DNA of 64,000 nucleotides from Terrimicrobiaceae bacterium (GCA_044340205.1 JBIIUB010000002.1:7125-71124), one strand, 5' to 3'; positions 7,157 to 40,301 are shown, counted from the first letter of the stretch. Notes: a model not told the origin generated them from the sequence alone. A program made the numbers and translations.

Positions 7157-7173
7157 GTTACAAATTCGTAACA
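7157..7173 (+). promoter_or_regulatory. GTNACA-N5-GTNACA motif, copy 1 (GTTACAaattcGTAACA)
   Basis: Read directly in the icd-tpsB intergenic region. Direct hexamer repeat with 11-bp phasing. Confidence 0.4.
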
Positions 7174-7247
7174 TGAATCCCGTTGCGCAATACATCGGGA
7201 GCCAAGATTCAGAAGGGTGCACTTGGTGTGAGAATCAGTGCAAAAGG

Positions 7248-7276
7248 AACAGGCGGGGGCAGCGCTCCCGCCTGTT
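7248..7276 (+). terminator. Stem-loop downstream of icd (possible intrinsic terminator)
   Basis: aacaggcggg / cccgcctgtt forms a perfect 10-bp stem around a 9-nt loop. Only a short T tract follows, so terminator function is uncertain. Confidence 0.45.
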
Positions 7277-7343
7277 TCATGTCTCCCGAAGACTTCCGTT
7301 TTTTCGATTGCTCCTGTGACTGAAAATCAAGCTCGAATTTTTT

Positions 7344-7360
7344 GTGACAGGATCGTAACA
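7344..7360 (+). promoter_or_regulatory. GTNACA-N5-GTNACA motif, copy 2 (GTGACAggatcGTAACA), about 50 bp upstream of the tpsB ATG
   Basis: Read directly from the sequence. Confidence 0.4.
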
Positions 7361-7408
7361 ATACTTCCGTTGCTGGCTGCAGGGTAGACTGCTGTCCTAC
7401 CGCGCTCA

Positions 7409-9049
7409 ATGATTCGGAGTTCTCACACCATCCGCTTCAGACGCCTGATCCTTCACTTGGTATTGGGAGTCTCTGTCGCCCTGTCCGGCCGCCTGGCCGC
7501 GCAGGACGCGAATCATTTGCTCGATGAGGAGCCGCCGCCAGTCGTGGATCCCGAGCCTCCGCAGACCTTTTCCATCCGCGAATTCCGCGTGGTCGGCGCC
7601 AAGACACTTCCAACCGGAGCGGTGGATAAGGCACTCTACAGCCACACCGGGCCGGGCCGCACGCCGGAGGATGTGGAAAACGCCCGCGCCTCGCTGGAGA
7701 AGGCCTACCACGACGAAGGCTACCAGACCGTTTCCGTCTCTGTGCCGCCCCAAGGGGTGAATACCGGCGTCATTGTGTTGCAGGTCACCGAGGCAACCGT
7801 CGGCCGCCTGCGCGTGAAGGGTTCCCGCTTTTTCGACATCGAGAGGATCAAAAAGATGGCCCCAGCGCTCGCAGAGGGCACCGTGCCGAATTTCAACGAT
7901 GTGCAGCGCGACATCATCGCCCTCAACCAGACCGCCGACCTCCAAGTCACCCCCTCACTTGCCGTTGGAAAAACACCAGGAACTGTCGATGTGGAGCTGA
8001 CAGTGAAGGACAAATTCCCACTGCACGGCAGCGTGGAGCTGAACAACCGCTACAGCGCGAACACGACGCCCCTGCGGCTCGACGCCTCGGTGCGCTACGA
8101 CAATTTGTGGCAGATGGGCCACACGATCGGCGCAGGCTTCCAGATCGCCCCGCAGCGCCCGAGCGACGCCCTCATTTTTTCCGGTTACTACATTGCCCGC
8201 ACGCCATCCATCGACTGGGTCGCGCTCATGCTTCAAGCTACGCGCCAGAACAGCGAGGTCTCGACACTCGGCGGCACCGACTCGCTCGGAAACGGCGAAA
8301 TCTACGGCGGGCGCTTCCTTTTCAACCTCCCCGCAAAGACCGGGTTCTACCACTCGGCCAGTATGGGCATCGACTACAAGGATTTTGCTCAAGATCTCGT
8401 TGTGGGCAACCAAACGGTTTCCAGTCCCCTCACCTACTGGCCGTTCTCGATCAACTACAACGCCAACTCGATCGGCAAACACTACGAGACCGAGTTCGGT
8501 GCTGGCGTGACCTTCTCTTTCCGTGGAACAGGCACGCAGGAGGCGATTGATTTCGACAATCGTCGCTACAATGCAAATGCGAACTTTTTCTACCTGCGAG
8601 GCAATCTGGCCCACACGCAGAAACTGCCGTGGGACTTCCAACTCTTCGGCGAGGTGCAGGGTCAAGCGACGGCCAATCCCCTCGTGGACACCGAGCAATA
8701 CAGCCTCGGCGGGCAATCCACCGTGCGCGGTTACCTCGAGTCCGTTGTAACCGGCGACAACGCCATTGCCGGCACGCTGGAATTTCGCACACCGTCCCTT
8801 CTCGGTTGGCTCCCGAAGGGCAACGAGTGGCGCTTTTTCGTCTTTATCGATGCCGGCTATGCCGTGCTCAACGATCCGCTCCCTGAGCAGACCTCGACCT
8901 TCAACCTCTGGAGCTACGGCGTCGGCACCAGCATCCGCCTCGTGGACCATATCAATGGCGACTTCTTTATCGGTATCCCACAAGTCACCCAATCTCCCTC
9001 GGAAGCCTATCAACCGCTCTTCTCCTTCAGCATCTCCGCAGAACTTTAA
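7409..9049 (+). CDS. TpsB outer-membrane transporter (ShlB/FhaC/HecB family, POTRA + beta-barrel)
   Basis: 546 aa with a signal peptide. POTRA-like region: FSIREFRVVGAKTLPTGAVDKALYSHTGPGRTPEDVENARASLEKAYHDEGYQTV...GRLRVKGSRFF. The long C-terminal part has an alternating beta-strand pattern (GGQSTVRGY). Confidence 0.85.
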   Translation: MIRSSHTIRFRRLILHLVLGVSVALSGRLAAQDANHLLDEEPPPVVDPEPPQTFSIREFRVVGAKTLPTGAVDKALYSHTGPGRTPEDVENARASLEKAYHDEGYQTVSVSVPPQGVNTGVIVLQVTEATVGRLRVKGSRFFDIERIKKMAPALAEGTVPNFNDVQRDIIALNQTADLQVTPSLAVGKTPGTVDVELTVKDKFPLHGSVELNNRYSANTTPLRLDASVRYDNLWQMGHTIGAGFQIAPQRPSDALIFSGYYIARTPSIDWVALMLQATRQNSEVSTLGGTDSLGNGEIYGGRFLFNLPAKTGFYHSASMGIDYKDFAQDLVVGNQTVSSPLTYWPFSINYNANSIGKHYETEFGAGVTFSFRGTGTQEAIDFDNRRYNANANFFYLRGNLAHTQKLPWDFQLFGEVQGQATANPLVDTEQYSLGGQSTVRGYLESVVTGDNAIAGTLEFRTPSLLGWLPKGNEWRFFVFIDAGYAVLNDPLPEQTSTFNLWSYGVGTSIRLVDHINGDFFIGIPQVTQSPSEAYQPLFSFSISAEL

Positions 9050-9058
9050 CCGCAAGAT

Positions 9059-11014
9059 ATGAAAACAACCGCATTCATCCGAACAGCACTTCTCGCCGCC
9101 ACGGCCCTTGTTTCCGTCACAGCGAATTCCCACGCCTGGTGGAACAAAGACTGGACCGCCCGCCGACCCGTCACGATCGATACCACCAAGACCGGATTTG
9201 AAATCAGCGAACCAGTCGGCACCGCCACCATCCTCCTGCGCCTCCACCAAGGAAACTTCGATTTCTCCACCGCCAAAGAGGACGGCACCGACATCCGCTT
9301 CGTGACAGAGGATGACAAGACACCCCTCGAATCCCGCGTGGAAAAATGGGACGCCCTCATGAACGAAGGCTTCGTGTGGGTCAAAGTCCCCGACATCAAG
9401 CCCGGCGCACAAACCAAAATCTGGCTCTACAGCGGCAACCCTGAAATCACCGCTGAGGAAGCCGCAGACCCGCTCGCAGCGCACGATACCGACACCATCC
9501 TCGCCTACAACTTCACCGCAGCCACACCCAAGGACGCCACAAAAAACGCCAACAACGCCACCTCCGGCGGCACGCTTTCCGAGGGCGCTCTCATCGGCCC
9601 CGGCATGCGCCTCCTCGGCAACACAGCCACCAAGATTCCCGGCTCGGACACCCTCCGCGCCGATGCTGCCCAACCCTTCACTCTCTCGACATGGTTGAAA
9701 CAATCCACCCTCAACGAAAAAGGCGTCCTCTTTGATTGGGGTGATGACTCCGCCCGTTTCCAAGTCGTTTTCCAAGCAGGCGCGCCTGTTGTTACCATCA
9801 CCTCCGCTTCCGGCACTTCCAAATCAACACCCGCGGACCCCGTCGCACCCAATGTCTGGAAACACATCGCCGTGGTTTCTGACGGCTCAAGCACAAAACT
9901 CTTCGTCGACGGCAAGGAATACTCCTCCGTCGCCGCTGGTCTGCCAGCCATCGTTGGCGAAGCCACGCTCGGCGCAGATGCCGATGGCAAAAACGGCCTC
10001 GTCGGCGAGATCGACGAGTTCAGCCTCTCGAAAACCGCCCGCCCCGAAGGCTGGGTCCAACTCGCCTACACCGGCCAGGCCGGCAATGATGCCAGCACCA
10101 AGCTCGTCGCCCTCGGCGAAGGTGAAGGCGGGGCCAGCGCAGGCGGTCACGGCGGCGCCATGGAGCATGTCATGCTCTTCGGCGACATCGCCAAGAACAT
10201 GATGTTCGACGGCTGGATCGCCATCGGCGTCTGCGTGATCATGATGTTTGCAGGATGGACCGTTGCCTTCGTCAAATTTGTTAATCTCGATAAAATCAAA
10301 AAAGGAAACGCAGAGTTCCAGCGCCTCTGGAAGGATGTCGCCACCGACCTCACTGCGATGGATCTCGACAACCCTGAGTCCTCAAAAACCTTCGGCGGCA
10401 AGATCGGCAAAAAAGGCCTCACCCTCCTCGCCGATTCACCCCTCTACCACATTTACCATGTCGGATCGGAAGAAATCCGCCACCGCCTCGGCTTCGGAAA
10501 AAACAAGGGCCAAGGCCTCTCAGCCCGCTCGATCCAAGCCATCCGCGCCTCGTTGGATGCCGCCCTCGTGCATGAACAGCACCGCCTCGGCAACGGCCTC
10601 GTTTACCTCACCACCAGCATCGCCGGCGGCCCCTATGTCGGTCTGCTCGGAACGGTCGTGGGTGTTATGATCACCTTCGCCATCATCGCCAAATCCGGCG
10701 AGGTGGATGTGAACTCGATCGCTCCCGGTATCGCCAGTGCGCTCCTCGCCACGACTGTGGGTCTCCTCGTCGCGATCCCGGCGCTGTTCATGTATAGCTT
10801 CCTGAATACCAGCATCAAAAACACCGTTTCCGCGATGCAGGTCTTCATCGACGAGTTCGTCGCCAAGGTCGCCGAATTCTACCCCACCCCGGGAGATTCC
10901 GGCCTTACCGTCCCGATCCGCCAAATCCGCACCCCGGAGGAGGCCGCACGCATTGAGGAGACCAAGGGCGATGAGAACGCTGCCATCATGGACAACCTCA
11001 TCAAACACAAATAA
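9059..11014 (+). CDS. MotA/TolQ/ExbB proton-channel protein with an N-terminal periplasmic DUF2341-like + LamG/ConA-like extension
   Basis: 651 aa. It starts with a signal peptide, then WWNKDWTARRPVTIDT...DGTDIRFVTEDDKTPLESRVEKWD...VWVKVPDIKPG...IWLYSGNP (DUF2341-like). A LamG-like segment follows (FTLSTWLK...VWKHIAVVSDGSSTKLFVDGKEY...GEIDEFSLS). Three TM helices then carry the ExbB signature GGPYVGLLGTVVGVM...IAPGIASALLATTVGLLVAIPALF. Confidence 0.85.
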   Translation: MKTTAFIRTALLAATALVSVTANSHAWWNKDWTARRPVTIDTTKTGFEISEPVGTATILLRLHQGNFDFSTAKEDGTDIRFVTEDDKTPLESRVEKWDALMNEGFVWVKVPDIKPGAQTKIWLYSGNPEITAEEAADPLAAHDTDTILAYNFTAATPKDATKNANNATSGGTLSEGALIGPGMRLLGNTATKIPGSDTLRADAAQPFTLSTWLKQSTLNEKGVLFDWGDDSARFQVVFQAGAPVVTITSASGTSKSTPADPVAPNVWKHIAVVSDGSSTKLFVDGKEYSSVAAGLPAIVGEATLGADADGKNGLVGEIDEFSLSKTARPEGWVQLAYTGQAGNDASTKLVALGEGEGGASAGGHGGAMEHVMLFGDIAKNMMFDGWIAIGVCVIMMFAGWTVAFVKFVNLDKIKKGNAEFQRLWKDVATDLTAMDLDNPESSKTFGGKIGKKGLTLLADSPLYHIYHVGSEEIRHRLGFGKNKGQGLSARSIQAIRASLDAALVHEQHRLGNGLVYLTTSIAGGPYVGLLGTVVGVMITFAIIAKSGEVDVNSIAPGIASALLATTVGLLVAIPALFMYSFLNTSIKNTVSAMQVFIDEFVAKVAEFYPTPGDSGLTVPIRQIRTPEEAARIEETKGDENAAIMDNLIKHK

Positions 11015-11020
11015 CCCACC

Positions 11021-11419
11021 ATGGACGCTGGCGACGACAAATCCTACGACGACATCAATGTGACCCCGATGGTAGACCTCTACCTCGTGCTTTTGCTGAT
11101 TTTTATCATCATGACCACAGCCGGAGTCCAGGGCGTGAAAATCGATCTCCCGAAAGGCAGCAAAGCCCCGGCTCTCGGCGGACCCAAGGGAAAATCCATC
11201 ACCATTAACAACGAGGGCAAACTCTTCCTCGACACCGTGCCGGTGACCATCGCCGAACTCGAAGCCAAGCTCAGCGAGCATAAATCCAAGGTGCCCGAGT
11301 TCCCCGTCGTTGTCCGTGGCGACCGCGCCACGCAATACATGATGGTCATGGAAGTCCTCGATGTGCTGGGACGCCTCGACATCAAGCAAATCGGCCTCGC
11401 CACCCAGGCGCCCAAGTAA
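11021..11419 (+). CDS. exbD: ExbD/TolR biopolymer transport protein
   Basis: 132 aa. INVTPMVDLYLVLLLIFII, followed by a periplasmic domain, is typical of ExbD. Confidence 0.9.
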   Translation: MDAGDDKSYDDINVTPMVDLYLVLLLIFIIMTTAGVQGVKIDLPKGSKAPALGGPKGKSITINNEGKLFLDTVPVTIAELEAKLSEHKSKVPEFPVVVRGDRATQYMMVMEVLDVLGRLDIKQIGLATQAPK

Positions 11420-11428
11420 CCCAAAACC

Positions 11429-12121
11429 ATGCCCGACGAAGAAGAAGACGAGCCAAGTTTCTTTGCGAAGCACAAAATCAAGATCATCCTTGGTGGCGTT
11501 CTCATCGTCGCGTTGGGCGTTTATTTCATGGGCGCACCGAAATCCGCCCCAAAGAAAAAATCCTCCGGCCCCGTCATGATTTCCCTGCCCCCGCCGCCGC
11601 CACCACCTCCCCCGCCGCCACCACCTCCGCCACCCAAGGAGCAACCACCCGAGCCCGAAACAGTGAAAGAGGAAAAATTCACACCCGAGGAGGCTCCCGA
11701 GCCCGAACCCCAAGCCGCACCCGAACCCGCCCCCATGGGCACGAACCTCGAGGGCAACGGCCCCGACGCCTTCGGCCTCGCCAAGGGCGGAGGCAGCGGC
11801 ATGATTGGAGGCACCGGCACAGGAAAAGGCGGCAAGGGCTCGAAATTCGGCGGCTATGCCTCCCAAGTGCAAGGCTCCATCGTCCAAGCCCTCCGCAATC
11901 ACAAAAAAACCAAATCCGCCGCACTCAATGTCACCGCCCGCATCTGGCTCGACGCCACCGGTCGCGTGACCCGCGCCACCATCTCTGGTTCCTCAGGCGA
12001 CCCCGCCACCGACGCCGCCCTCCGCAACGAAATTCTCACCGGTCTGCAAATGCAGGCTCCCCCACCGGAAGGCATGCCGATGCCCATCGTCATGCGACTC
12101 AAAGCCACTCGACCCAACTGA
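11429..12121 (+). CDS. TonB-like energy transducer with a poly-proline spacer
   Basis: 230 aa. It has an N-terminal TM helix, an uninterrupted proline run, a PEPE-rich spacer and a C-terminal TonB_C-like segment (NVTARIWLDATGRVTRATISGSSGDPATDAALRNEI). Confidence 0.75.
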   Translation: MPDEEEDEPSFFAKHKIKIILGGVLIVALGVYFMGAPKSAPKKKSSGPVMISLPPPPPPPPPPPPPPPPKEQPPEPETVKEEKFTPEEAPEPEPQAAPEPAPMGTNLEGNGPDAFGLAKGGGSGMIGGTGTGKGGKGSKFGGYASQVQGSIVQALRNHKKTKSAALNVTARIWLDATGRVTRATISGSSGDPATDAALRNEILTGLQMQAPPPEGMPMPIVMRLKATRPN

Positions 12122-12125
12122 TCCC

Positions 12126-14195
12126 ATGAGCCTGCCCACCACCCTAAGACTCCTCGCCCTCGCCACCCTGCTGGCCACCGTCCCGCTACACGCGCAGGAC
12201 TACACCGTCAGCGAACCCTCAAAAAACAAGATCGTCATCGACTACGCGCAGAATACGGCACCAGCCCCCACGCCTGCTCCAGTCGTTCAACCGATCACGG
12301 ACGCCCCGCTTCCAGCAGTGCCAGCATCCACGCCCGAGGCTCAACCAAAGCCTCAACCTTCTCCCACCCCTGAACCAACACCCGAGCTGAAGCCAATAAA
12401 AGCGGCTATCCAAGAATCCCAATCGAACGCCGCGCCACTTCCCGTTGTCGAATCCCCGCTTCCCTCGACTCCGAGCACCCCCACCGGCAATGTCACCATC
12501 AACCTCATCCAAAAACTCGTGAAACGCGGCATCCTCACCCAAGAGGAAGCTAACGAAATGATCCGCCAGTCGGAAGCCGAGGCCGAGGCCGTCCGCGCCC
12601 AGAGCCAGACCGACATGGTCGCCATCGCCCAGGCCGCCGCCGTTCAGGTCGTCGCCACATCCGCCCCCGCAGGTTCCGACCTCCCACCCTCCTCGCCGGA
12701 TGACATCCGCGTGACCCACATTCCCCAACCTGTCAAAGACCAGATCAAAGAAGAGATCAAACTCGAACTCGCCACGAACCGCACCTCCCGCGAGATCGCC
12801 AATTCCCTGCGCCTCCCGAAATGGGTTGAGAATGGCAAAGCCGCCTTCGACCTCCGCGTGCGTTACGCTGGCACCTTCTTCCCAACCGGCAACGATGCCA
12901 GCGGCGCCTTCCCGAATTTCAATGCCATTAACACCGGCGCTCCCTTCGATACCACCGGCACCCAGTTCGCACCCCAGCTGAATGTTGACCAAAACCGCAA
13001 CCAGTATCTCCTCCGAGCCCGCTTTGGCATGGACTTCGCCATGAGCGAAAACTTCTCCTCCGGCTTCCGCGTGGCCACCGGCAGCAACAACTCGCCCGTC
13101 TCTACCAACCAAGGTATGGGCGTTGCCAACTCCGCCACCCAAGGCCAAGGCGGCAACTTCAGCAAATACGCCATCTGGCTCGACCGCGCCTTCATGCGCT
13201 ACGACTTCAATGTCACCGAGGCCATCAAGACCACCGCATGGGCCGGCCGTTTCGAAAACCCCTTCTTCAGCACCCGCCTGACCTGGGATGACGACCTCGG
13301 CTTCGACGGTGCCGCCCTCACCACCAAGGCAAACATCACCGAGAACTTCGCCCTCTTCGGCACCGGCGGCGCGTTCGTCGTTTACAACACCGACTTCAAC
13401 TTCTCCTCAAACCAGCCCGCAAAATTCGCCAGCTACGACAAATACATGTTCGGCGGACAAGCCGGCTTCGAGTGGAAAATCGGCGACGACCTGAAATGGA
13501 AAACTGCCGCCGCCGTCTACTACTTCGACAACATCGAAGGAAAACTCTCCGATCCCTATACGCCACTCACCGCTAACGACGCCAGCAACACAGATAACAG
13601 CCGTCCCTCCTTCGCCCAAAAAGGAAACACCTACATGGCTATCCGCGACATTGTTCCCGATGCCAGCAACGACTATGGCGCCATCAACCAGTGGCAATAC
13701 TACGGCCTTGCCACCGAGTTCACCGAACTCGCCCTCACCTCACAGATCGACTACGACGGCTTCGAACCCGTCCGCGTTTCTGTCGTCGGCGAATATGTGC
13801 AGAACCTCGCATTCAACCAGGACGACATCAACGCTATCGCCGTCAACAACCGCAGCGCACTCGATGAGAACGAACTCACCGACATCGGTCTCTTCGAAGG
13901 CAGCCCCTACGGCTGGTTCGTCGACCTCCGCGTCGGCACCGTCGCCCTCGCGAAACGCTGGGACTGGCTCCTCTCCGTCGGCTACCGCTGGATCGGCTCC
14001 GACTCCGTGGTTGACGGCTTCAATGACTCCGACTTCGGCGGCGGCGGCACCAACATGCAAGGTTTCACCGCAGCCGGTTTCCTCTCCCTCTCCGAGAATG
14101 TCTACCTCGGCCTGCGCTGGATGGGCTCCGAAAGCATCGCCGGCCCGCAATACGACACCAATATCTTCTACCTTGAGGTTAACTCCAAATTCTAA
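12126..14195 (+). CDS. Putative outer-membrane beta-barrel (porin-like) protein with a Pro-rich linker and helical N-terminal module
   Basis: 689 aa. It has a signal peptide, a P/T/E-rich linker and the helical segment LIQKLVKRGILTQEEANEMIRQSEAEAEAVRAQ. About 480 aa of alternating-hydrophobic strands follow, ending in ...IFYLEVNSKF; a C-terminal Phe is typical of OMPs. Confidence 0.6.
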   Translation: MSLPTTLRLLALATLLATVPLHAQDYTVSEPSKNKIVIDYAQNTAPAPTPAPVVQPITDAPLPAVPASTPEAQPKPQPSPTPEPTPELKPIKAAIQESQSNAAPLPVVESPLPSTPSTPTGNVTINLIQKLVKRGILTQEEANEMIRQSEAEAEAVRAQSQTDMVAIAQAAAVQVVATSAPAGSDLPPSSPDDIRVTHIPQPVKDQIKEEIKLELATNRTSREIANSLRLPKWVENGKAAFDLRVRYAGTFFPTGNDASGAFPNFNAINTGAPFDTTGTQFAPQLNVDQNRNQYLLRARFGMDFAMSENFSSGFRVATGSNNSPVSTNQGMGVANSATQGQGGNFSKYAIWLDRAFMRYDFNVTEAIKTTAWAGRFENPFFSTRLTWDDDLGFDGAALTTKANITENFALFGTGGAFVVYNTDFNFSSNQPAKFASYDKYMFGGQAGFEWKIGDDLKWKTAAAVYYFDNIEGKLSDPYTPLTANDASNTDNSRPSFAQKGNTYMAIRDIVPDASNDYGAINQWQYYGLATEFTELALTSQIDYDGFEPVRVSVVGEYVQNLAFNQDDINAIAVNNRSALDENELTDIGLFEGSPYGWFVDLRVGTVALAKRWDWLLSVGYRWIGSDSVVDGFNDSDFGGGGTNMQGFTAAGFLSLSENVYLGLRWMGSESIAGPQYDTNIFYLEVNSKF

Positions 14196-14201
14196 CGCCA
14201 C

Positions 14202-14837
14202 ATGAAAATCAAAACCTACGCCCTCTTGGCCGCAGCCGCCGTCCTCCTCTCGCCGCTCCTCCGCGCCGCCGAGGAAGACCCCACCGCAAAGTTCCGCGAA
14301 GCCCTCAAAGACACCATGCTCAAGCTCCGCGCCGCCCAAACCGACCTCGCCAACGCCCAAGCCGCCCAGTATGCCGCCGAGGCCAAGGCGACCGAACTCA
14401 CCGCGAAAACCGAGTCCCTCAACAAGGAACTCGCCAACGAGCGCAACACCTCCACCAACATGATCGCCGATCTCAATAAAAAGATCGCCGACCGCGACGG
14501 CTCGATCGTCGAACTCAACGCCGCCCTCGCCAAATGGAAAAAATCCTACGGCGAAGTCGCCAAACTCGCCTCGAAACGCGAAGGCCAACGCGCCCAACTC
14601 GACACCAAACGCATCGAACTCGAACGCAAAGTCCAAGAGGAACAACAAAAAAACATCGAAATGTATCAAGCCGGCATGGAAATCCTCGACCGCTACGAAA
14701 AATTCGGCCTCGGCGACGCCATCCTCGCCCGCGAACCCTTCACCGCCGCCCAACGCGTCAAATTCCAAAACCTCGTCCAAGACCTCTCCGACAAACTCAC
14801 CGACGCCCGCATCCCCGCCGACGCCCCAAAGAAATAA
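14202..14837 (+). CDS. Secreted coiled-coil protein (hypothetical)
   Basis: 211 aa with a signal peptide (LLRAAEED). The rest is long heptad-like, K/E/A/L-rich sequence. Codon usage matches the neighbouring genes. Confidence 0.6.
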   Translation: MKIKTYALLAAAAVLLSPLLRAAEEDPTAKFREALKDTMLKLRAAQTDLANAQAAQYAAEAKATELTAKTESLNKELANERNTSTNMIADLNKKIADRDGSIVELNAALAKWKKSYGEVAKLASKREGQRAQLDTKRIELERKVQEEQQKNIEMYQAGMEILDRYEKFGLGDAILAREPFTAAQRVKFQNLVQDLSDKLTDARIPADAPKK

Positions 14838-14838
14838 T

Positions 14839-14881
14839 CCGATCCGTCCAATCCGTCTGATCCACCCGATCCGTCCAATCC
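14839..14881 (+). repeat. Two 16-bp direct repeats (CCGATCCGTCCAATCC) in the leader of the PPIase gene
   Basis: Copies lie at 14839-14854 and 14866-14881, with three GATCC sites within about 35 bp. A related sequence recurs upstream of tpsA (15890-15931). Confidence 0.7.
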
Positions 14882-14895
14882 AAAACTCACCCACC

Positions 14896-15771
14896 ATGCT
14901 CCGCCACACCACCCTCGCCCTCCTCGCCGCCGCCTCTCTTACCCTCCCCGCCCACGCCGCCGACTCCGTCATCGCCCGCGCCGGTGACCGCGACATCACC
15001 GTCGCGCAAATCCAGCCCTACCTCGCCAGCCTCAGCGAAGCCGACCGCGCCGCCCTCAAGCAAAACCCCGCCGCCCTCAGCCAAGCCGTCCGCACCCTCA
15101 TTCTCCAGCAAGTCCTCCTCAAAGAAGCCAGCAACGCCGACTGGGACGACAAAGCCGAAACCCAAGCCCTCCTCGCCCGCGTCCGCGACGCCGCCATCGC
15201 CGAGAGCTACCTCGAATCCGTCACCAAAGTCCCGGCCGACTTCCCCTCGGATGCCGAAGTCAAGGAAGTCTACGACGCCCGCAAAGCCGAACTGAACTTG
15301 CCCAAGCAATACCGCCTCGCCCAAATCTTCATCGCCAACGGCACCGACCCCGCAAAAGCCAAGTCCAAAGCCGACGCCCTCGCCAAACTGGTCAAATCCG
15401 GCGACTTCGCCGCCCTCGCCAAAACCAACAGCGACGAACCCCGCAGCGCCGCCAATGGAGGTGAGGTCGGTCTCCTCCCCGAGGAATCCATCCAGCCCGC
15501 CATCCGCAAAGCCCTCACCGGCCTCGCCAAAGGCGCCACCGCCGGTCCCATCGAACTCGGCGATGGACTCTACTTCGTCAAAATCCTCGACATCCAAGAA
15601 CCCCGCACCGCCACCCTCGACGAGGTAAAACCCCAAATCATCCGCGCCCTCCGCACCGAACGCCAGAACCTAAACCGCCAAGCCTACCTCCAACGCCTCC
15701 AAGCCCAGGCCCCCATCACCCTCGACGAAATCGCCTTACCAACCCTCCTCAAACCCGACGACAAAAAATAA
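14896..15771 (+). CDS. Periplasmic SurA/PpiC-type (parvulin) peptidyl-prolyl isomerase
   Basis: 291 aa with a signal peptide. A SurA_N-like helical region is followed by the rotamase core QYRLAQIFI...GDFAALAKTNSDEPRSAANGGEVGLL...GPIELGDGLYFVKI. Confidence 0.8.
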   Translation: MLRHTTLALLAAASLTLPAHAADSVIARAGDRDITVAQIQPYLASLSEADRAALKQNPAALSQAVRTLILQQVLLKEASNADWDDKAETQALLARVRDAAIAESYLESVTKVPADFPSDAEVKEVYDARKAELNLPKQYRLAQIFIANGTDPAKAKSKADALAKLVKSGDFAALAKTNSDEPRSAANGGEVGLLPEESIQPAIRKALTGLAKGATAGPIELGDGLYFVKILDIQEPRTATLDEVKPQIIRALRTERQNLNRQAYLQRLQAQAPITLDEIALPTLLKPDDKK

Positions 15772-15779: not shown

Positions 15780-15796
15780 GTTACAAAATCGTCACA
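15780..15796 (+). promoter_or_regulatory. GTNACA-N5-GTNACA motif, copy 3 (GTTACAaaatcGTCACA), about 135 bp upstream of the tpsA ATG
   Basis: Read directly. 12 of 16 positions match the E. coli Pho-box core GTCATAAAACTGTCAC when aligned without gaps. Confidence 0.4.
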
Positions 15797-15931: not shown

Positions 15932-18900
15932 ATGTTGAAAACCGGCCACCGCACCAAATACCACCTCCGCGCCTTCGAGTTCCTCGCAGCGCGTAGGCGT
16001 TCGCGCGCCGTTCTCACATGCACCCTGCTCGCCTCCTTCCTGGCTACCATGCCCACCGGTGGACTCCAAGCTGGCGACATCCTCCGCGGAGGAGCCAGCG
16101 CCGGCAACGCCAAGCGAAACTCCGAAGCCCGTGCCAACGCCGGAGCCGCAGCCGCCAAAGTCCGCGCCCAAGACCGCCTCGCCCGCACCACTAAGGCCGT
16201 CAACGACATGCGCGCCCTCCAAGCCTCCGCCCGCGCCGCAGCCGGGGCTAATACCATCCCCAACGGCCTCACCGAAGGCGGTCTCAAAGTCCTCACCGGC
16301 GCAAACGCGAAATGGGAAGGTGCAAACGCACCCATAGCCTCCGGCAACACCGTCGGTATCACCCAAACCGCTTCCCAAGCCCTACTGCACTGGGAAACCT
16401 TCAATGTCGGCAGCCAAACCACCGTTAATTTCGACCAATCCGCCGGCGGAGCCGATTCCGGAAAATGGATCGCCTTCAACAAAGTCTTCGACCCCACCGC
16501 CAAACCCTCCGAGATCCGTGGAAAAATAACCTCCCAAGGCCAAGTCTACATCCTCAACCAAAACGGCATCATCTTCGGCGCCGGTTCCCAAGTCAACGCC
16601 CGCACCCTCGTCGCCTCAGCCCTCCCGATCAACGATAACCTCGTTAAGAATGGCCTCCTCAACAACAAAGACGCCCAGTTTCTCTTCAGCGCCCTCGAAG
16701 TTCCAGGCGGTTCCGACGGCACACCAACCTTTACACCCACGGATGTTCCCGAGGTTTTGGGCGATATTATCCTCGAGCGTGGAGCAAAAATCTCAAGTCC
16801 CGAACTCGCGGGAGGTAACGGTGGCCGCGTAATGCTCATCGGCGCCAATGTTCGCAACAAGGGCGAAATTTCTACTCCTGCGGGCCAAACAATCCTCGCC
16901 GCCGGATTGCAAGTGGGTGTGCGTGAGCACAACAACTCCGACCCGAGCCTACGCGGATTGGATGTATGGGTTGGCGCAGTTGACCTCGATGGCGTCAATC
17001 CTTACGCAGGACAAGTTCAAAATTCCGGAATCATTGAATCGCCAACCGGGTCCATTGTTGTTGCGGGAAAAAGGATTGACCAAAACGGTGTTTTGGAAAG
17101 CACGACTTCCGTAAACTTGAACGGTCGGATTGATCTCCTTGCCAACTACGGGGCTGTAGCCAACCCGAATTTCGATAATTCGGGAACCCTTGGCGATGGC
17201 GCCCCGATGTTTATCAACCAGTTCACTGGCAATATCGTAATGGGGCCTCAAAGTATCACACGCATCCTGCCGGACTATGCCTCAACCAAGTCGGTTCCTG
17301 GGACGAGACTCCCCCAAAATTCGCAAATCAACTTTCAAGGAAATTCCATTTCATTTTCTGCCGGATCGACCCTGCTAGCTCCCTCGGGCGATGTGGGCAT
17401 ACGCTCGGGCACATGGAGCTACAAAGACGACGAAAGTTTGAATCGCACGATCTTCAATGCGGATGGCGAAATCGAGGAGACCCTCCAATCCGCGCTCCGA
17501 ACGCCATTTATTTTTACTCAAGGCACCGTGAACTTCTCATCTGGCGCGATTCTTGATGTCTCGGGCACTCCGGATGTATTTGTTCCTCTCTCACACCGTG
17601 TCATGGATGTCCAGTTGCGTGGAAACGAACTGGCGGATTCCCCATTACAAAGGGACAGCGATCTGCGTGGAAAAAACCTCCGAATCGATCTCCGCAAAAC
17701 CGGAGTTTATGGAGGGAGGTTTTGGATGGGAACGCCCTTGGGCGACGCAAATGGCTTGGCGAATATCATTGAAAGAAACGCCGCCCAACTGACAACACGA
17801 GGCGGCACCGTATCAATACAAGCCGGTGAATCAGTCGCTGTGGCATCCGGTGCGGAACTGAATGTATCCGGTGGCTACACGAGAAACGAAGGCGGATTGA
17901 TTCAAACGACGCGGCTTCTACGAAATGGCAGTTTGATCAACATCGCGGATGCGACGCCGGATATTATTTACGATGGAATCCTCACCGGTAGCTCTCAAAA
18001 AGTCTCGGCAAAATGGGGAAACCCCAAAACTTATCGTCATGCTTTGGCTCCAATGGGTGCTTATAGTGAAAAAGAATACATCGCTGGCGAATCGGGCGGT
18101 TCCATCGATATCACCGCACCAACCGTTCGCATCTCGGGCGAATTGAGTGGCAGAACAGTTACGGGACTGAAACAACTCAACACACCTGCGGGACACTCCT
18201 CTTTGGCTCTTCGTTTCCGCAATCAGAAACCGGTCGAGACTCCGACAGGCACAGTTTATTTGGATCAAATCTCTGCTCCACCTGCGCTGGTTCTTGGCAC
18301 TGGTTCAGGAGTCGGCATCCCCGGTTTGAAGATGGGGCAAACACTCACGATTCCGTCATCAATTCTTGAGGAAGAAGAAGGTTTTGGCCATGTCACCCTT
18401 GAAAACAAAGGAGGCACAATACAGGTCGCGGGGGAGCCGGTCCAGATGGCTGCTGGCGGCTCTCTGACGCTCCAGGCCACTAATGTTTCGATTCTTTCAT
18501 CCGTCTTGATTCCCGGAGGTTCGCTATCTGCTACGGCCTATAACTACTCGCCATTCCTCTATGCCGAGCAAACTGCCACCGAAGTATTGGTGGGACAACC
18601 AGCACCAAAGGTCGTTGAGCGCACTGGTATCATTCTTATTGGGTCGGGCGTGGAATTGAATGTTGCAGGAACCATTTCGGATGATCGACCCACCTCCGCC
18701 TTGGCTCACAACTCGCGACGGGCCATCGACGGCGGCAGCGTGAAGCTGGAAGGATTTTCGATCTTTGCCGGTTCAGAAACTGCCGTCCGCGCATCGGGCG
18801 GGGTAGCGATGAATGGCCGGGGTAAATACACTAAGGGAAAAGGCGGCTCGATTTCCCTGTTGGCTGGCAAGGATCCTCTTTTGAGCACATCGGTCGGGGG

Positions 18901-27691: not shown

Positions 27692-27799
27692 TTAACCCCC
27701 TCGCTCTTTTTTGCGGAGTGAACATTTTCTTGATCACCACGCTACCAATCACTGGTGAGTGGAAATTCAAAACTAAAATACATTAGCGACAGAAATCAC

Positions 27800-29023: not shown

Positions 29024-29046
29024 TACGATTCATTAGTTCAAAATCG

Positions 29047-29080
29047 GACTGGCACTGCCTTGCAGTGCCAGTCTTTTTTT
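29047..29080 (+). terminator. Rho-independent terminator after the PstS-like gene
   Basis: gactggcactgc-ctt-gcagtgccagtc forms a perfect 12-bp stem, followed by TTTTTTT. Confidence 0.8.
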
Positions 29081-29161
29081 CGTTACAGCTGGTTGATTTT
29101 TTAATCTCAAAAGTGCCAATGTTGATTTCAAAATTCTAATAATGGCAAGCGGTCTGCCCCT

Positions 29162-29686: not shown

Positions 29687-29701
29687 CCTGACATTAAAAA
29701 A

Positions 29702-30541: not shown

Positions 30542-30590
30542 ATTCTCGAAATTGAGAGCCTGTTGCCTTGCATCCTTCCAGAACAGTTAT

Positions 30591-30607
30591 GTTACAGTTT
30601 CGTAACA
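30591..30607 (-). promoter_or_regulatory. GTNACA-N5-GTNACA motif, copy 5 (plus-strand GTTACAgtttcGTAACA; core palindrome ATGTTAC-N6-GTAACAT), about 50 bp upstream of the Sel1 gene start
   Basis: Read directly. The core GTNAC-N6-GTNAC is self-complementary, so orientation is ambiguous. Confidence 0.4.
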
Positions 30608-30724
30608 TTTAGATCCCACATCGAATTGGCCATTTTTTGTAATTTTTGGGTGAAAGTCACACCTTTCTAAGTGAGCATTGCACGCATAATGACGCCGCTC
30701 ATTGGACAAACAAAAACCAGATGA

Positions 30725-31021
30725 GCTTTTTTCGGCTGTAAAGACAAACTCATCTCGAACATGACGACCAATCTCAACCTCACCGACATGGAAGCCTGCT
30801 ACAAAGTTTTCAAACGCGAACTCATCCAGTCCGTAACCCTCGAGGAAAACCGCTTCGGCATCGAACCCGAGATCGTCGCCAAGATCGCCCGCACCGGCGC
30901 CCGCATCTACGAAGTCGCCATCTCCTACCATGGCCGCACCTACGCCGAAGGCAAAAAAATCGGCTGGAAAGACGGCATCAGCGCCCTCCGCTGCATCCTC
31001 AAATACGGCCTCCTGCGCTGA
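30725..31021 (+). pseudogene. 3' remnant of a family-2 glycosyltransferase (DPM1/GtrB-like)
   Basis: The open frame after the TGA at 30722-30724 reads [34 protein letters not shown]...[13 protein letters not shown]...[27 protein letters not shown]. That is only the C-terminal third of a GT2 enzyme. The DxD/catalytic N-terminal two thirds are absent and the upstream DNA is non-coding. Confidence 0.65.
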
Positions 31022-31190
31022 GATTTTTACCGCAACCAAACCCAAGGACAGGCGGGAGGTAGATCAACACGGAGGAGGGCAAAGAATTGGCCAATGCAGG
31101 CAAAGCAACCCGAGCAATTGCTGAAAACCACGCACTCCCAGCTTGGGCAATCCTCACAACACCTCACTTATCCTCGAAACAGGCCACCTC

Positions 31191-31325
31191 AAACTAGGGG
31201 TCAGTGTTCATTTTCTTTCATTTTTCCCAATAACCCACTAACATCAGGTGATAAAATACGGTTTTTTATACAAACCTTGATTTTATTTATATTTTTGAAA
31301 GAAAATGAACACTGACCCCTAGTTT
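31191..31325. mobile_element. 135-bp element with perfect 30-bp terminal inverted repeats (MITE-like)
   Basis: Left arm 31191-31220 is aaactaggggtcagtgttcattttctttca. Right arm 31296-31325 is its exact reverse complement. The 75-bp AT-rich interior has no ORF. Confidence 0.5.
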
Positions 31326-31460
31326 ACTTGTCGTGATGCAACGGATCTTGAAACTTGGCGAGTCAGCCCTTCCACTTTAGGCCACCAACGAAGCGCTTCC
31401 TTCGGCCTTCAGGTCTTTGGTTCGCATGACACATTTTTTGTGTTTGGCGGACCCCGATCC

Positions 31461-31498
31461 AAAAAACGCCCGCGCTCCGCGACCTGTGGGAGGGCGTT
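31461..31498 (-). terminator. Possible intrinsic terminator after tonB (minus strand)
   Basis: The minus strand reads AACGCCC...GGGCGTT followed by TTTTTGG. The stem overlaps the stop codon by 2 nt and the loop is long (about 20 nt). Confidence 0.4.
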
Positions 31499-32537: not shown

Positions 32538-32538
32538 G

Positions 32539-35268: not shown

Positions 35269-36285
35269 TTAAGAAGACACGGTGCTGACGAGGGCGGGCT
35301 TGAGCGAGGGCGGGCGGGTTCCATTGAGAAGAGCCGACGCCGCACTGCGCCCGAGACGCCGGAAATCATATCTCAAGCGACTGACAGGCGCAGAGAGGAT
35401 GCCGGTGCCTTGCGTGGCGATGAGCGGAAATACCTCGCCGGGCTTGTGGAGGGGAGCGATTTTTTCGGCCAAGGCGCGGGACACATGGTCTTCGGGACAA
35501 AGGAATGCGAAGCCCTTCCCACATAGCGAAGCAACTTGCTTTTCCGCCGCCGCATAATCCATTCGCTTCACGATTCGCCCCTCCAATTCCTCCTCGAGAA
35601 ATGCCATCGATTCGTCGATCACGGCATCACCCCTGAAGGGCACCACCAGAACCACTCCGGCAAACGCGCTGCGGTCTATCATTCCTCGGACAAGACGCGC
35701 CCCGTGTTTCTGGTCAATGCCAACCGGAGCGCTTCGCAGCAGTTGCAAACGCATTCCATCCGGGCAGGAAGAAGCTGCGATCACCTCCGGAGCCCATAGA
35801 TGGTCGAAAAGAAAACCGCAGCAACCTCGGGGGGCGTTTTTGAGGATGGAATCCAGTTCGCGCCGCTGGATGTCGAGGGATGCGAATCGGGGCGGTTGCA
35901 GCGAATCCGCCTGTTTGAGCAACGACGGGGCCGAACACAGCACCAGGCTGCCCGCATTCGCCGAACTCGCCTCAGACACGCCTGAGAGGATTTCTTGATA
36001 GAGGCGGCTCCAGTGGCACATCTCGCGACCGATGAAGCACAGCGGCTTTCCCCTCACCTGTTCCACGCGGGCTGAGGCAGGATAAAACCTTCCGCTCGGG
36101 CTTTGCCAAACCACACCCTCCACCGCCAGGTCCTGCAGGATTCGAAAGATGGTGGAGGCGTGAAGCTTCAACTCGCCGGACAACACAGCCAAGGTCGGAA
36201 GGCACCGACTGGCTTCGGTGGAAGCGGCTATTTCGGCAAGACGCTCCCTCGCCTTCCTTGCAAGGAGTGTGGGCTTTCGAGGCAT
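35269..36285 (-). CDS. Transcriptional regulator: GntR-type winged HTH fused to a LacI/periplasmic-binding-like sugar sensor domain
   Basis: 338 aa. The N-terminus LPTLAVLSGELKLHASTIFRILQDLAVEGVVWQSPSGRFYPA is wHTH-like. The gene is divergent from the sugar-kinase operon. Confidence 0.65.
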   Translation of the reverse strand: MPRKPTLLARKARERLAEIAASTEASRCLPTLAVLSGELKLHASTIFRILQDLAVEGVVWQSPSGRFYPASARVEQVRGKPLCFIGREMCHWSRLYQEILSGVSEASSANAGSLVLCSAPSLLKQADSLQPPRFASLDIQRRELDSILKNAPRGCCGFLFDHLWAPEVIAASSCPDGMRLQLLRSAPVGIDQKHGARLVRGMIDRSAFAGVVLVVPFRGDAVIDESMAFLEEELEGRIVKRMDYAAAEKQVASLCGKGFAFLCPEDHVSRALAEKIAPLHKPGEVFPLIATQGTGILSAPVSRLRYDFRRLGRSAASALLNGTRPPSLKPALVSTVSS

Positions 36286-37528: not shown

Positions 37529-38430
37529 AAATTCTCATCACCGGCGGAAGCGGCTTCATCGGCAGTCATGTCGTGGAGCATTATCAGGACATCGCGGAGG
37601 TGGTCGTTTTGGACAATCTGCGCAGTGGACACCGCAAGAACCTCGACGGTCTGAAGTGCCGGTTCGTGGAGGGATCCATCATGGACAAGCCGCTCCTCGA
37701 CGAAGTCATGCAAGGGGTGGATTACATCTTCCATCTGGCCGCCCTCATCAGCGTGCCGGAATCCATGCAACGACCAGACGAAACCGTGGAACTCAATGTG
37801 CGCGGGCTTCTGAATGTGCTCGAGGCGGGCCGCAAGCACGGCGTGAAGAAGCTCAGCTTCGCAAGCTCCGCGGCCGTGTATGGCGAAAATCCCATCCAAC
37901 CCAAGGTGGAAAGCATGACGCCCGATCCACGGAGTCCCTATGCCATCACCAAGCTCGACGGCGAATACTACTGCAGCCTCTATGCCCGCGAAGGCTGGCT
38001 GCAAACAGCGTGCATCCGTTTCTTCAATGTCTTTGGTCCGCGTCAGGATCCGCGCAGCGCTTACGCCGCCGCCGTGCCGATCTTCCTCCACCGCGCGCTC
38101 AGCGGGGAGCCAATCACGGTCTATGGTGATGGTGGCCAGACGAGGGATTTTATTTTCGTTAAGGACATCGTCGGAGCGCTCGCCTTTGCCGCCGAAACCC
38201 CGCACGCCACAGGAGTCTTCAATGCGGGCTACGGCAAATCCATTACCATCCTTGAACTCGTTCAGGAAATCCTGCGCCTCACCGGCTCCAAGTCGGAAAT
38301 CCGTTTCGAGCTTGTGCGGGCAGGCGACATACGCCACTCGACATCGGATCCCTCGAAGCTCATGGCCGCTGGTTGGAAGCCCCGTTTCGATGTCCCTGCC
38401 GGGTTGCGTGCCTGTCAGGAAGGCAAATAA
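37525..38430 (+). CDS. NAD-dependent nucleotide-sugar epimerase/dehydratase (GalE/WbpP-like SDR)
   Basis: 301 aa. It has MKILITGGSGFIGSH (Rossmann fold) and YAITKLDGE (YxxxK). An ATGA overlap joins it to the kinase gene. Confidence 0.9.
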   Translation: MKILITGGSGFIGSHVVEHYQDIAEVVVLDNLRSGHRKNLDGLKCRFVEGSIMDKPLLDEVMQGVDYIFHLAALISVPESMQRPDETVELNVRGLLNVLEAGRKHGVKKLSFASSAAVYGENPIQPKVESMTPDPRSPYAITKLDGEYYCSLYAREGWLQTACIRFFNVFGPRQDPRSAYAAAVPIFLHRALSGEPITVYGDGGQTRDFIFVKDIVGALAFAAETPHATGVFNAGYGKSITILELVQEILRLTGSKSEIRFELVRAGDIRHSTSDPSKLMAAGWKPRFDVPAGLRACQEGK

Positions 38431-38502
38431 GGCTGCGAACACCTGCGGACCAAAGGGACTTTTCCTCTCGAACGAAAAAAACGATCTGCTAATCGCAATT
38501 AA

Positions 38503-39501
38503 ATGACTTCCCTCAATGCTCTCCTGATTGGAATGCCAAACTACTTGCCGAAGGCATATCCCGAAGCCTTGCGAGCGGAAATTGGCAAAAAGGTTCGTCT
38601 CCTTCCTGAAACCGTCAGCGGGTCAGAGTGGAAAAATCACACTGCGGTTCTTGCAGAAGCGGATGTGCTTTTTGCGACTTGGGGAATGCCAAAGCTCGAC
38701 GAGGAATTTCTCGCCGCCGCGCCACGATTGAAAGCTGTCTTCTACGCGGCCGGCTCGGTAAAATGCTTTGCAACGCCCGAGTCCTACAAGCGGGGAATCC
38801 TGATCTCAAGCGCCTGGCAGGCGAATGCCATACCTGTGGCCGAGTATTCCCACGCCACAATTCTTCTCGGGCTAACGGGCTTCTGGTCGAGCCAACGCCT
38901 CGCCCGGGCTGGCAAATTCAGTCATCAACATTCCCCTGTGGCAGGCGCATTCCATTCGAGTGTCGGTCTCGTCTCCTTAGGAGCCATCGGTCGCCTTGTG
39001 GCCGGACATCTGGCGAAACACGAAATTAACATCCTCGCCTACGATCCCTACGCAACGCCCGCCGCGGCGGCCGCGCTGGGAGTCACGCAGGTTTCCCTAC
39101 AGGAGCTTTTTTCAAAAAGCCATGTGGTGAGCATCCACACTCCGTGGCTGCCGGAAACCGAGAAAATGATCAACGCCCCGCTCCTGCGCTCGATGCCCGA
39201 AGGCGCCACCCTCATCAACACCTCGCGCGGGGCGGTGATCGATGAAACAGACCTCTGCCAGGTTCTCGCCGAGCGTCAGGACATCACTGCCATTCTGGAT
39301 GTAACCCACCCCGAACCGCCGCTTCCGGACTCACCATTGCGGACTTTGGAAAATGTCGTCCTCACTCCGCACATCGCCGGCAGCATTGGGGGAGAGGTCG
39401 CCCGCATGGGATATTGGATGAATGACGAACTCGACCTCTATCTGGCCGGGAAACCTCTTCAGCACGGCGTCTCCGAAGACATGCTCGCCCGCATGGCCTG
39501 A
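38503..39501 (+). CDS. D-isomer-specific 2-hydroxyacid dehydrogenase family protein
   Basis: 332 aa. It has the NAD-binding motif VGLVSLGAIGRLVAGHL and the catalytic-region motifs INTSRGAVIDE and TPHIAGS. Confidence 0.85.
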   Translation: MTSLNALLIGMPNYLPKAYPEALRAEIGKKVRLLPETVSGSEWKNHTAVLAEADVLFATWGMPKLDEEFLAAAPRLKAVFYAAGSVKCFATPESYKRGILISSAWQANAIPVAEYSHATILLGLTGFWSSQRLARAGKFSHQHSPVAGAFHSSVGLVSLGAIGRLVAGHLAKHEINILAYDPYATPAAAAALGVTQVSLQELFSKSHVVSIHTPWLPETEKMINAPLLRSMPEGATLINTSRGAVIDETDLCQVLAERQDITAILDVTHPEPPLPDSPLRTLENVVLTPHIAGSIGGEVARMGYWMNDELDLYLAGKPLQHGVSEDMLARMA

Positions 39502-39511
39502 CACATTTTTT

Positions 39512-40288
39512 ATGCTTCCCGGACTTGTATCGATCACCTTCCGCAAGCTCACGCCGCAACAAATCGTCGAACTTTGCGTTCAAAACAGGCTCCAAGTCAT
39601 CGAGTGGGGCGGCGATGTGCATGTGCCGCATGGCGACATCGATACGGCTACTCAAGTCGGCCGACTGACCCGCCAGCACGGGCTTGATGTCGCCGCGTAT
39701 GGTTCCTACTACCGCCTCGCGGCCAGCCCGGCTGATGGATTGCATTTCTCAGATGTGCTGGCTTCCGCCGTTGCGCTCGAGACCAAGGCGATCCGCGTGT
39801 GGGCTGGCAATCGAGGTTCGGCGGATGCACATCCAAGCTGGCGCGATGAGGTCGTCCAAGACGCCCTGCGCTGCGCTGATCTGGCCGCCGAAAAAGGCAT
39901 CACCATTTGCTACGAGTTCCACGGCGGCACGCTCACCGACACGCTCGATTCCACCTGCGATCTGCTGGCCGCGACAGTGCATCCCTTCATCAAAACGCTC
40001 TGGCAGCCGCCGCATGGGCGTCCGCTGGAGGAATGCCTTCACGGTCTGCGCACCCTCGCACCGAGGCTCCAGCATGTGCACGGATTCCATTGGTGGCCGA
40101 ATCCCTCGCACCGCCTGCCTTTGCGGGCGGGCAAGGATCGCTGGACCGCCTATGTCTCGGAACTCCGCGCCCTCGGCGTGGATGCCAACATCCTTCTCGA
40201 ATTCGTCGCCGGAGACTCACCCGAGGCCCTGACTGACGATTCCGCATTCCTTAACGAAATGCTCCGCGAGTCCGAACAGCCCGTGTGA
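39512..40288 (+). CDS. Sugar phosphate isomerase/epimerase (xylose-isomerase-like TIM barrel)
   Basis: I prefer the ATG at 39512 (MLPGLVSITFRKL). IEWGGDVHVP...IRVWAG...ICYEFHGGTLTD...ILLEF is the AP_endonuc_2-type pattern. Confidence 0.8.
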   Translation: MLPGLVSITFRKLTPQQIVELCVQNRLQVIEWGGDVHVPHGDIDTATQVGRLTRQHGLDVAAYGSYYRLAASPADGLHFSDVLASAVALETKAIRVWAGNRGSADAHPSWRDEVVQDALRCADLAAEKGITICYEFHGGTLTDTLDSTCDLLAATVHPFIKTLWQPPHGRPLEECLHGLRTLAPRLQHVHGFHWWPNPSHRLPLRAGKDRWTAYVSELRALGVDANILLEFVAGDSPEALTDDSAFLNEMLRESEQPV

Positions 40289-40301
40289 CATTTTTGTAAC
40301 G
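40285..40301 (+). promoter_or_regulatory. GTNACA-N5-GTNACA motif, copy 6 (GTGACAtttttGTAACG), about 57 bp upstream of the 40357 ORF
   Basis: Read directly. The left half overlaps the TGA stop of the preceding gene. Confidence 0.35.

Follow-up and report, generated by a model that had tools for sequence, protein, structure and literature searches.

One of the closest described counterparts of the system treated here is the Pdt/PUMA3 regulon of Pseudomonas aeruginosa, which depends on PhoB and is induced by phosphate starvation (PMC4971064). Its genes are pdtA (PA0690) and the group phdA-pdtB-exbB2-exbD2-tonB4-PA0696..PA0701, which includes a PpiC-type peptidyl-prolyl isomerase (PPIase) (PMC2729926, PMC4971064). 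At the pdtA and phdA promoters, PhoB binds pho boxes made of two repeats (-56 to -40) upstream of the sigma-VreI -35 element. Mutation of either pho-box repeat abolishes pdtA promoter activity, and sigma-VreI is needed for pdtA (PMC4971064). Here, we describe a motif of two short units, GTNAC-N6-GTNAC, that recurs around a similar gene cluster in 64,000 nucleotides of DNA from a Terrimicrobiaceae bacterium (GCA_044340205.1, JBIIUB010000002.1:7125-71124). This whole stretch is referred to as the window, and its DNA is that of freshwater Terrimicrobiaceae ("Spartobacteria", Verrucomicrobia) of the Lake Mendota type. Judging from its sequence and from the genes that it precedes, the motif is most probably the Pho box of this verrucomicrobial lineage (Terrimicrobiaceae/Chthoniobacterales), and PhoB would be the protein that binds it. 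The searchable literature held no description of a verrucomicrobial Pho box that we could find.

Six copies of the motif in non-coding DNA

A search of both strands of the window for GTNAC-N6-GTNAC returned exactly six matches, starting at 7157, 7344, 15780, 27675, 30591 and 40285. These are the six copies of the preliminary description, with the same coordinates and sequences. Because the core pattern equals its reverse complement, the strand reported by a search carries no meaning; strands below follow the gene concerned.

7157-7173, plus strand: site 1, GTTACAAATTCGTAACA, 45 nt past the icd stop codon and 5' of a conserved two-hairpin element
7183-7188, plus strand: -35-like hexamer TTGCGC, a putative promoter element 9 nt after site 1; the TTGC at this distance does not vary in the alignment
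7344-7360, plus strand: site 2, GTGACAGGATCGTAACA, 48 nt before the tpsB ATG
7370-7375, plus strand: putative -35-like hexamer TTGCTG, 9 nt after site 2
15780-15796, plus strand: site 3, GTTACAAAATCGTCACA, 135 nt before tpsA
27675-27691, plus strand: site 4, GTAACGAAATCGTCACA, before the gene of a 407-aa protein with a predicted PstS fold
30591-30607, no strand: site 5, GTTACAGTTTCGTAACA, in a divergent intergenic region; its core is a perfect dyad
40285-40301, plus strand: site 6, GTGACATTTTTGTAACG, 55 nt before a 132-aa orphan open reading frame (ORF)

The number of copies is far above expectation. Shuffles of the window that preserve dinucleotide composition gave 0.20 matches on average, and six were reached in none of 100 shuffles. 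Variants with one mismatch are present at chance level, with only 8 additional matches against 8.5 expected, so the perfect sites stand apart as a population of their own and are not the extreme of a frequent word. All six perfect copies lie in non-coding DNA, which makes up about 6.5% of the window in the gene map (chance of six out of six below 3e-7); with its first four bases, site 6 runs over the TGA stop codon that ends the preceding gene. The restriction to intergenic DNA had been proposed from a careful look at such DNA, and it held in the full scan of both strands including coding regions, which gave no further perfect match. The sequences flanking the six copies are unrelated to each other, and the copies are thus not those of a dispersed repeat element.

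Across the sites in the window and in relatives, the consensus is T-GTKAC-RRAWTY-GTMAC-A. All sites fit GTNACR-N3-TY-GTNACA, and the spacing of 11 bp between the two units, one helical turn, is invariant. A/T is found at spacer positions 8-10 in 21, 24 and 22 of 24 sites, and at the two bases 3' of the second unit in 16 and 13 of 19 sites. Within the window, the spacer is conserved as initially noted, with T at its position 5 in all six copies and C at position 6 in five. The likeness of copy 3 to the E. coli Pho-box core, 12 of 16 positions, was also counted correctly. Distances to start codons needed revision. Three sites had been placed 50-57 bp before a start codon and were measured instead at 48 nt (tpsB), 49 nt (Sel1, minus strand) and 55 nt (132-aa ORF). 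The tRNA-Glu gene of the window has an ordinary TTGTCA-N16-TAGTAT promoter without the motif; the organism hence has sigma-70 promoters of the standard kind, and the motif cannot be taken for a general promoter element.

The genes around sites 1 to 5 follow the order icd, TpsB operon, TpsA, 407-aa protein, 174-aa protein and Sel1-repeat protein (minus strand). The transcription units next to the sites, and a seventh, degenerate site, are as follows.

7409-15771, plus strand: operon of TpsB (ShlB/POTRA), ExbB (DUF2341 + LamG), ExbD, TonB, Porin_5, a 211-aa coiled-coil protein and a PpiC-type PPIase, by Pfam domains
15932-27613, plus strand: giant TpsA exoprotein of 3893 aa with an N-terminal TPS domain and a C-terminal DUF3739
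27800-29023, plus strand: secreted 407-aa protein, predicted by AlphaFold2 and Foldseek to have the fold of PstS (phosphate-binding protein) with large insertions
29702-30541, minus strand: Sel1-repeat protein gene, with its ATG 49 nt from site 5
40357-40755, plus strand: lineage-restricted ORF of 132 aa, with only 3 homologue clusters among 5.8 billion proteins
41452-43757, minus strand: ATP-binding cassette (ABC) transporter consisting of an ATPase and a fused SBP_bac_3-permease; regulon membership is possible
43806-43822, minus strand: degenerate seventh site, TCAACAAATCCGTCACA, with a position weight matrix (PWM) score of 13.1, 48 nt before the ATG at 43757 of the ABC ATPase

Translation of the ABC ATPase probably starts at the ATG at 43757, and the longest ORF (42990-43859) begins 34 codons too early. 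The 132-aa ORF has no match in Pfam or NCBIfam, and NCBIfam offers no specific names for the proteins of the TpsB-TpsA cluster.

Conservation at orthologous positions

Homologous loci from other genomes and metagenomes are cited by number (L003 and so on) where they need to be told apart. The box before tpsB is kept in orthologues at 90, 87, 80-81 and 47% protein identity, the last being that of Haloferula, in surroundings that can no longer be aligned. The promoter layout is conserved together with the box and runs box, 9 nt, TTG(C/A), 17 nt, a weak hexamer, 10-17 nt, ATG. TTG(C/A) at N9 is present in 7/7 box-carrying verrucomicrobial tpsB promoters including that of Haloferula (L021), and likewise after the one-mismatch variant of L016. 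The same TTGC stands 9 nt after the box at tpsB, at site 1, at the gene of an RTX-type protein in L119 and at pstS in L131.

The other sites show the same pattern. Site 1 is kept in 10 relatives with completely different DNA upstream of it, and site 3 is kept before tpsA in L003-L019, L011 and L012. Orthologues of site 4 precede the orthologous gene (410-414 aa), with a perfect site in L119 and one-mismatch sites in L115 and L118 (GTGGCR...GTCACA). The orthologue of site 5 likewise adjoins Sel1 in L115, L118 and L119. Site 6 is kept in L134 and L133, where the 132-aa protein is 89% and 74% identical and the flanks have diverged. A perfect site stands in L048 (position 3598) at the place orthologous to the degenerate seventh site. 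On these alignments the motif is under purifying selection, as each site is kept at orthologous positions while the flanks diverge.

Genes marked by the motif outside the window

Outside the window, the motif marks genes of phosphate uptake. A PWM was built from 19 sites and used to scan contigs carrying PstS homologues, which had contributed none of these sites. In every one of these contigs (L122, L124, L126, L131 and L128), a site was found 54-122 nt upstream of pstS. The orthologue of site 5 stands 37-54 nt before a PstS gene in L115-L117 and L128; the distance is 37 nt in close relatives, where NCBI gives the name PstS to a 76%-identical homologue of the gene behind it. Five lineages (L122, L124, L126, L131 and L115/L128) thus have the motif before pstS, at distances of 37-122 nt. 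L122 is a phoB-phoR-pstSCAB-phoU locus with the site before pstS, and L124 and L126 have a second site between a divergent pstS2 and an ArsR-type gene. Other genes fit the same theme. A further site in L128 stands on the other strand, 48 nt upstream of a Porin_O_P (phosphate-selective porin) gene. In L119, a more distant relative, sites precede the gene of the RTX-type protein (1894 aa) and a 213-aa gene followed by an alkaline phosphatase gene. A Metallophos gene in L122 is preceded by the motif weakly. The better-scoring orientation of the PWM faces the gene in 5/6 loci outside the training set, including the porin gene on the minus strand.

Control DNA was taken from 80 ExbB-centred metagenome loci (627 kb), mostly of the same order as the window. 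These loci were first meant to test the conservation of sites 4-6. Their synteny ends at the TonB stop codon, and the scan therefore served as a negative control. The control contained a single perfect site, and two sites scored 15 or more with the PWM, which corresponds to background frequency. Against this background, the association with pstS has a chance probability below 1e-14. The specific regulon suggested in the preliminary description gains support from the same control. A tblastn search with E. coli PstB, PhoU and PhoB, using approximate query sequences, detected neither pst nor pho genes among the first 114 loci.

In two Chthoniobacterales loci (L124 9376-9903 and L126 9343-9879), the pst operon lies within an arsenic-resistance island with ArsA, ArsD, LMWPc and SBF genes. 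The divergent second pstS and the ArsR-type gene are each preceded there by a perfect TGTGAC-N6-GTCACA box.

The predicted PstS fold and the region of sites 4 and 5

The 407-aa protein encoded after site 4 had been called PstS-like. Sequence searches with Pfam, NCBIfam and phmmer against the PDB returned no similarity to any named sequence, and it was the predicted fold that bore the name out. The AlphaFold2 model has a mean pLDDT (predicted local distance difference test) of 89, and the top 16 Foldseek matches in the PDB are all phosphate-binding PstS proteins, with E-values down to 6.6e-10. The protein is thus predicted with high confidence to have the PstS phosphate-binding fold, with about 150 residues of insertions. 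More than 860 homologues were found; none of the 120 listed has a Pfam domain. In all relatives examined, the gene of this family adjoins TpsA. A strong terminator at 29046-29074 follows the gene in the window.

Site 5 lies between the Sel1 gene and a plus-strand region that has changed in the window.

30761-31021, plus strand: C-terminal remnant of a family-2 glycosyltransferase-like gene; the family was assigned by eye from the ORF translation

The remnant sits where relatives (L115 and L128, by comparison with L115) carry the pstS gene. From this comparison of gene order, the plus-strand target of site 5, a pstS-like gene in relatives, is lost from the window and replaced by the remnant. 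The stretch of about 890 bp at 30608-31496 is without a convincing gene. The G+C content of 27614-31496 is 49%, and that of the whole window is 56%.

Site 1 and the two-hairpin element

Site 1 is followed by an element of its own.

7217-7279, plus strand: nearly invariant block of 63 nt with two hairpins, a candidate small RNA or terminator

The block consists of a 9-bp stem and a G+C-rich stem of 15 bp with one compensatory pair. Its 3' end at 7279 keeps a fixed register of 122 nt from the start of site 1 at 7157, with no insertions or deletions across 10 relatives. No Rfam family matches 7217-7279, and a consensus scan of 7000-7500 found neither a sigma-70 promoter nor a classical terminator. 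The arrangement suggests that 7217-7279 may be a small RNA driven by the Pho box, or it may merely be a terminator.

Site architecture and the regulator

The motif had been described as a direct repeat and as a Pho-box-like operator of an OmpR/PhoB-type regulator. The second proposal is supported by the association with pstS, porin and phosphatase genes, by the PstS fold and by the likeness to the Pdt/PUMA3 system, with PhoB as the presumed binding protein. Of the first, the two units in 11-bp phasing stand, as their spacing is invariant; the direct repeat is doubtful, as the central bases are dyad-like. The unit YGTNACR is itself palindromic, so only its central base distinguishes a direct from an inverted repeat. 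This base is T/G in the first unit of 20/24 sites and A/C in the second unit of 23/24 (Fisher p = 2e-8). The spacer is polar, with a nearly invariant T at position 10 and A or G at the mirror position 7.

The locus L122 offers a candidate for the regulator. A gene with Response_reg and Trans_reg_C domains and a gene with PAS, HisKA and HATPase domains lie directly upstream of pstSCAB-phoU. The response regulator (7862-8554) is 40% identical to E. coli PhoB, and its recognition helix is nearly the same (RTVDTHIRRLR compared with RTVDVHIRRLR in E. coli).

Several observations weigh against a PhoB-bound Pho box. E. coli PhoB binds head-to-tail on direct repeats, and the complementary central bases are the pattern expected from an inverted repeat or dyad, which makes a direct repeat doubtful. 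No response regulator gene is present in the window, and phoB in L122 is not preceded by the motif. A site is also missing at the phosphonate-type ABC transporter (2470-4827) of the window. The -10 candidates after the boxes are poor; a TATACA-like -10 stands at N15 after the box in L124 and L126. Finally, the ArsR-type (HTH_5) gene flanked by two sites in these two loci is an alternative candidate for the binder.

The last point leads to the rival that survives best, a palindromic operator of a different dimeric regulator acting on the same phosphate genes. One example would be the HTH_5 protein of the ArsR/SmtB type whose gene, in some relatives, lies between pstS2 and pstSCAB. The dyad-like consensus T-GTKAC-R...Y-GTMAC-A with its complementary central bases agrees with such a dimer, and the sites on both sides of the HTH_5 gene in L124 and L126, the downstream one before pstS, would suit an autoregulated repressor. 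However, an HTH_5 gene is absent from the surroundings of the sites in the window and in L115, L119, L122, L128 and L131, and the arsenic-resistance islands around L124 and L126 account for the ArsR gene there. The sites also have a consistent polarity towards the gene and precede -35-like elements, as the site of an activator would, and a canonical phoBR pair adjoins pstS in L122. We consider a different dimer unlikely.

Much less probable is that the hexamers are the promoter of an alternative sigma factor of the extracytoplasmic function (ECF) class, similar to VreI, rather than the site of a regulator. GTNACA resembles some ECF -35 elements, which read TGTCACA for ECF41 and GTAACC for Caulobacter SigF. 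Genes for an ECF sigma factor and FecR flank the proteobacterial homologues of the cluster, and P. aeruginosa pdtA has its requirement for sigma-VreI (PMC4971064). The hexamers are nonetheless 5 bp apart, compared with the 16-17 bp between a -35 and a -10 element. No conserved CGT-type -10 is found 16-17 bp after either hexamer, and a reading of either as an ECF -35 with its own -10 was rejected for the lack of a conserved -10. The motif also stands at canonical pstS promoters, and in no verrucomicrobial locus is an ECF sigma factor or FecR gene found beside the cluster. The TTGC-N17-hexamer after the box might still be recognized by an alternative sigma factor. Chance clustering, a promoter or UP-type element of a general kind, or a mobile repeat in several copies might be raised given a small sample from a single window, and are contradicted by the shuffles, the unrelated flanks, the motif-free tRNA-Glu promoter, the background level in the control and the orthologous conservation, which makes them a negligible prospect.

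Other known sites were compared and set aside. A CRP/FNR-type site (TGTGA-N6-TCACA) is excluded because TGTKA and TMACA are 8 bp apart here (TGT-N12-ACA) and not 6; more generally, the spacings of CRP-like and NifA-like TGT-Nx-ACA sites do not fit. A sigma-54 promoter is excluded as there is no GG-N10-GC register. The helix-turn-helix protein of GntR/IclR-like type encoded at 35269-36285 adjoins no site.

With the motif taken as a Pho box, the following mechanism can be proposed. At low phosphate, the PhoR kinase would phosphorylate a PhoB-type response regulator, a dimer of which would occupy the two hexamers one helical turn (11 bp) apart. Bound PhoB would recruit RNA polymerase to a weak promoter just downstream, which at tpsB and several other genes would include the TTGC -35-like element 9 bp after the box. 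In the window, this would switch on the TpsB-ExbB-ExbD-TonB-porin-PPIase operon, the giant TpsA and the divergent PstS-fold protein. The Sel1 protein, the 132-aa orphan ORF and the ABC transporter would probably be switched on too. Many start codons are only 37-58 nt past the box, so the leaders must be short. That PhoB is the binding protein, that it activates and does not repress, and where transcription starts are all inferred.

A broader and more speculative idea, which we consider less likely than not, would turn the dyad-like consensus into a property of the operator. In this phylum, the Pho operator may be truly dyadic, with PhoB or another phosphate-responsive dimer binding it symmetrically. 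It might directly control an ancient phosphate-starvation module, the giant TpsA with its ExbBD-TonB-porin machine, without an ECF relay of the Pseudomonas type, and it may also drive a Pho-regulated small RNA (7217-7279).

Implications and other features of the window

Lakes limited in phosphorus harbour abundant, uncultured Verrucomicrobia of this family. A defined Pho box lets their phosphate-starvation regulon be read directly from metagenomes. The putative regulon, taken from the window and orthologous sites, includes a secreted protein of about 3900 residues with its own TonB-type energising system. A giant-exoprotein/TonB module of the Pdt type and a PstS-fold family without Pfam domains might thereby be tied to phosphate shortage in a lake bacterium not yet in culture. 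Should the machinery prove to be tied to phosphate shortage in two phyla, phosphorus acquisition would be a more probable role of the cluster than virulence as such.

Some features of the window lie apart from the sites. Just upstream of the tRNA-Glu gene and its promoter are two copies of a composite repeat (51675-51759 and 51917-51978), made of segments of 33 nt and 31 nt that are 88-90% identical and about 220-240 bp apart. On the minus strand at 52145-58457, the gene of a FecR-domain protein (261 aa) lies directly downstream of that of a protein of 1828 aa in which TPR repeats and a GT41 domain accompany two glycosyltransferase domains; an ECF sigma factor gene is absent from the neighbourhood. 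At 48286-48806 (minus strand), a ParE-type toxin gene (102 aa) follows an overlapping ORF of 71 aa, and the two are probably a parDE toxin-antitoxin pair. The ExbB of the TpsB operon (9059-11014) has 651 aa, with periplasmic DUF2341 and LamG/concanavalin-like domains ahead of the MotA/ExbB channel domain. ORFs of 600-654 aa, recognized by length only, follow tpsB in homologous clusters of other phyla (L011, L021, L022, L025 and L028).

Comparison with known systems

The hexamers have the form of those bound by Gram-positive OmpR-family regulators. The PhoP box of Bacillus subtilis is built from TT(A/T/C)ACA repeats with spacers of about 5 bp, and the WalR box reads TGTWAH-N5-TGTWAH. The motif shares with both a hexamer of the form xTNACA or TGTNAx, a 5-bp spacer and 11-bp phasing, and the proteins that bind the PhoP and WalR boxes are of the OmpR family. 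The PhoP and WalR boxes are direct repeats, usually of at least four hexamers, whereas the sites described here have two hexamers with complementary central bases.

The Pho box of E. coli and P. aeruginosa (CTGTCAT-AAAA-CTGTCAY) consists, like the sites in the window, of two units of 6-7 bp with an 11-bp period and an A/T-rich tract after each. The second unit of the motif (YGTCACA or YGTAACA) matches the TGTCAC of this Pho box, and both stand upstream of pstS, porin and phosphatase genes. Unlike in E. coli, the first unit reads GT(T/G)AC here and is complementary to the second unit, and the central base is degenerate. The E. coli Pho box replaces the -35 element, whereas here the box stands 9 bp before a TTGC -35-like element at several promoters.

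The likeness of the whole cluster to the Pdt/PUMA3 system is drawn from the order and domain content of the genes and from proteobacterial homologues (34-49% identity) that have vreAIR-like genes. The giant TpsA, TpsB, ExbB, ExbD, TonB, secreted hypothetical proteins and the PpiC-type PPIase are the same in content and order. The proteobacterial TpsB-cluster homologues have the same gene order, and genes encoding an STN-only protein, a FecR/DUF4880 protein and an ECF sigma factor adjoin them; such a vreAIR-like module is beside the cluster in L022, L025 and L028. In P. aeruginosa, vreA-vreI-vreR adjoin the cluster, in contrast to the window and every verrucomicrobial locus. Matches to GTNAC-N6-GTNAC stand directly upstream of the vreA-like STN-only gene in Dyella (L025 6998) and Herbaspirillum (L028 18686), where P. 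aeruginosa has its pho box, and by analogy they are likely proteobacterial pho boxes of PUMA3-like systems. Downstream of the vreA-like gene, L028 has ECF sigma factor and FecR genes; L025 has FecR, with no sigma factor gene identified. In P. aeruginosa the pho box lies upstream of the -35 element and does not replace it (PMC4971064), and in the window the box likewise precedes the putative -35-like element. In this layout of box then TTGC, the promoters of the window resemble that of Pseudomonas pdtA more than those of E. coli.

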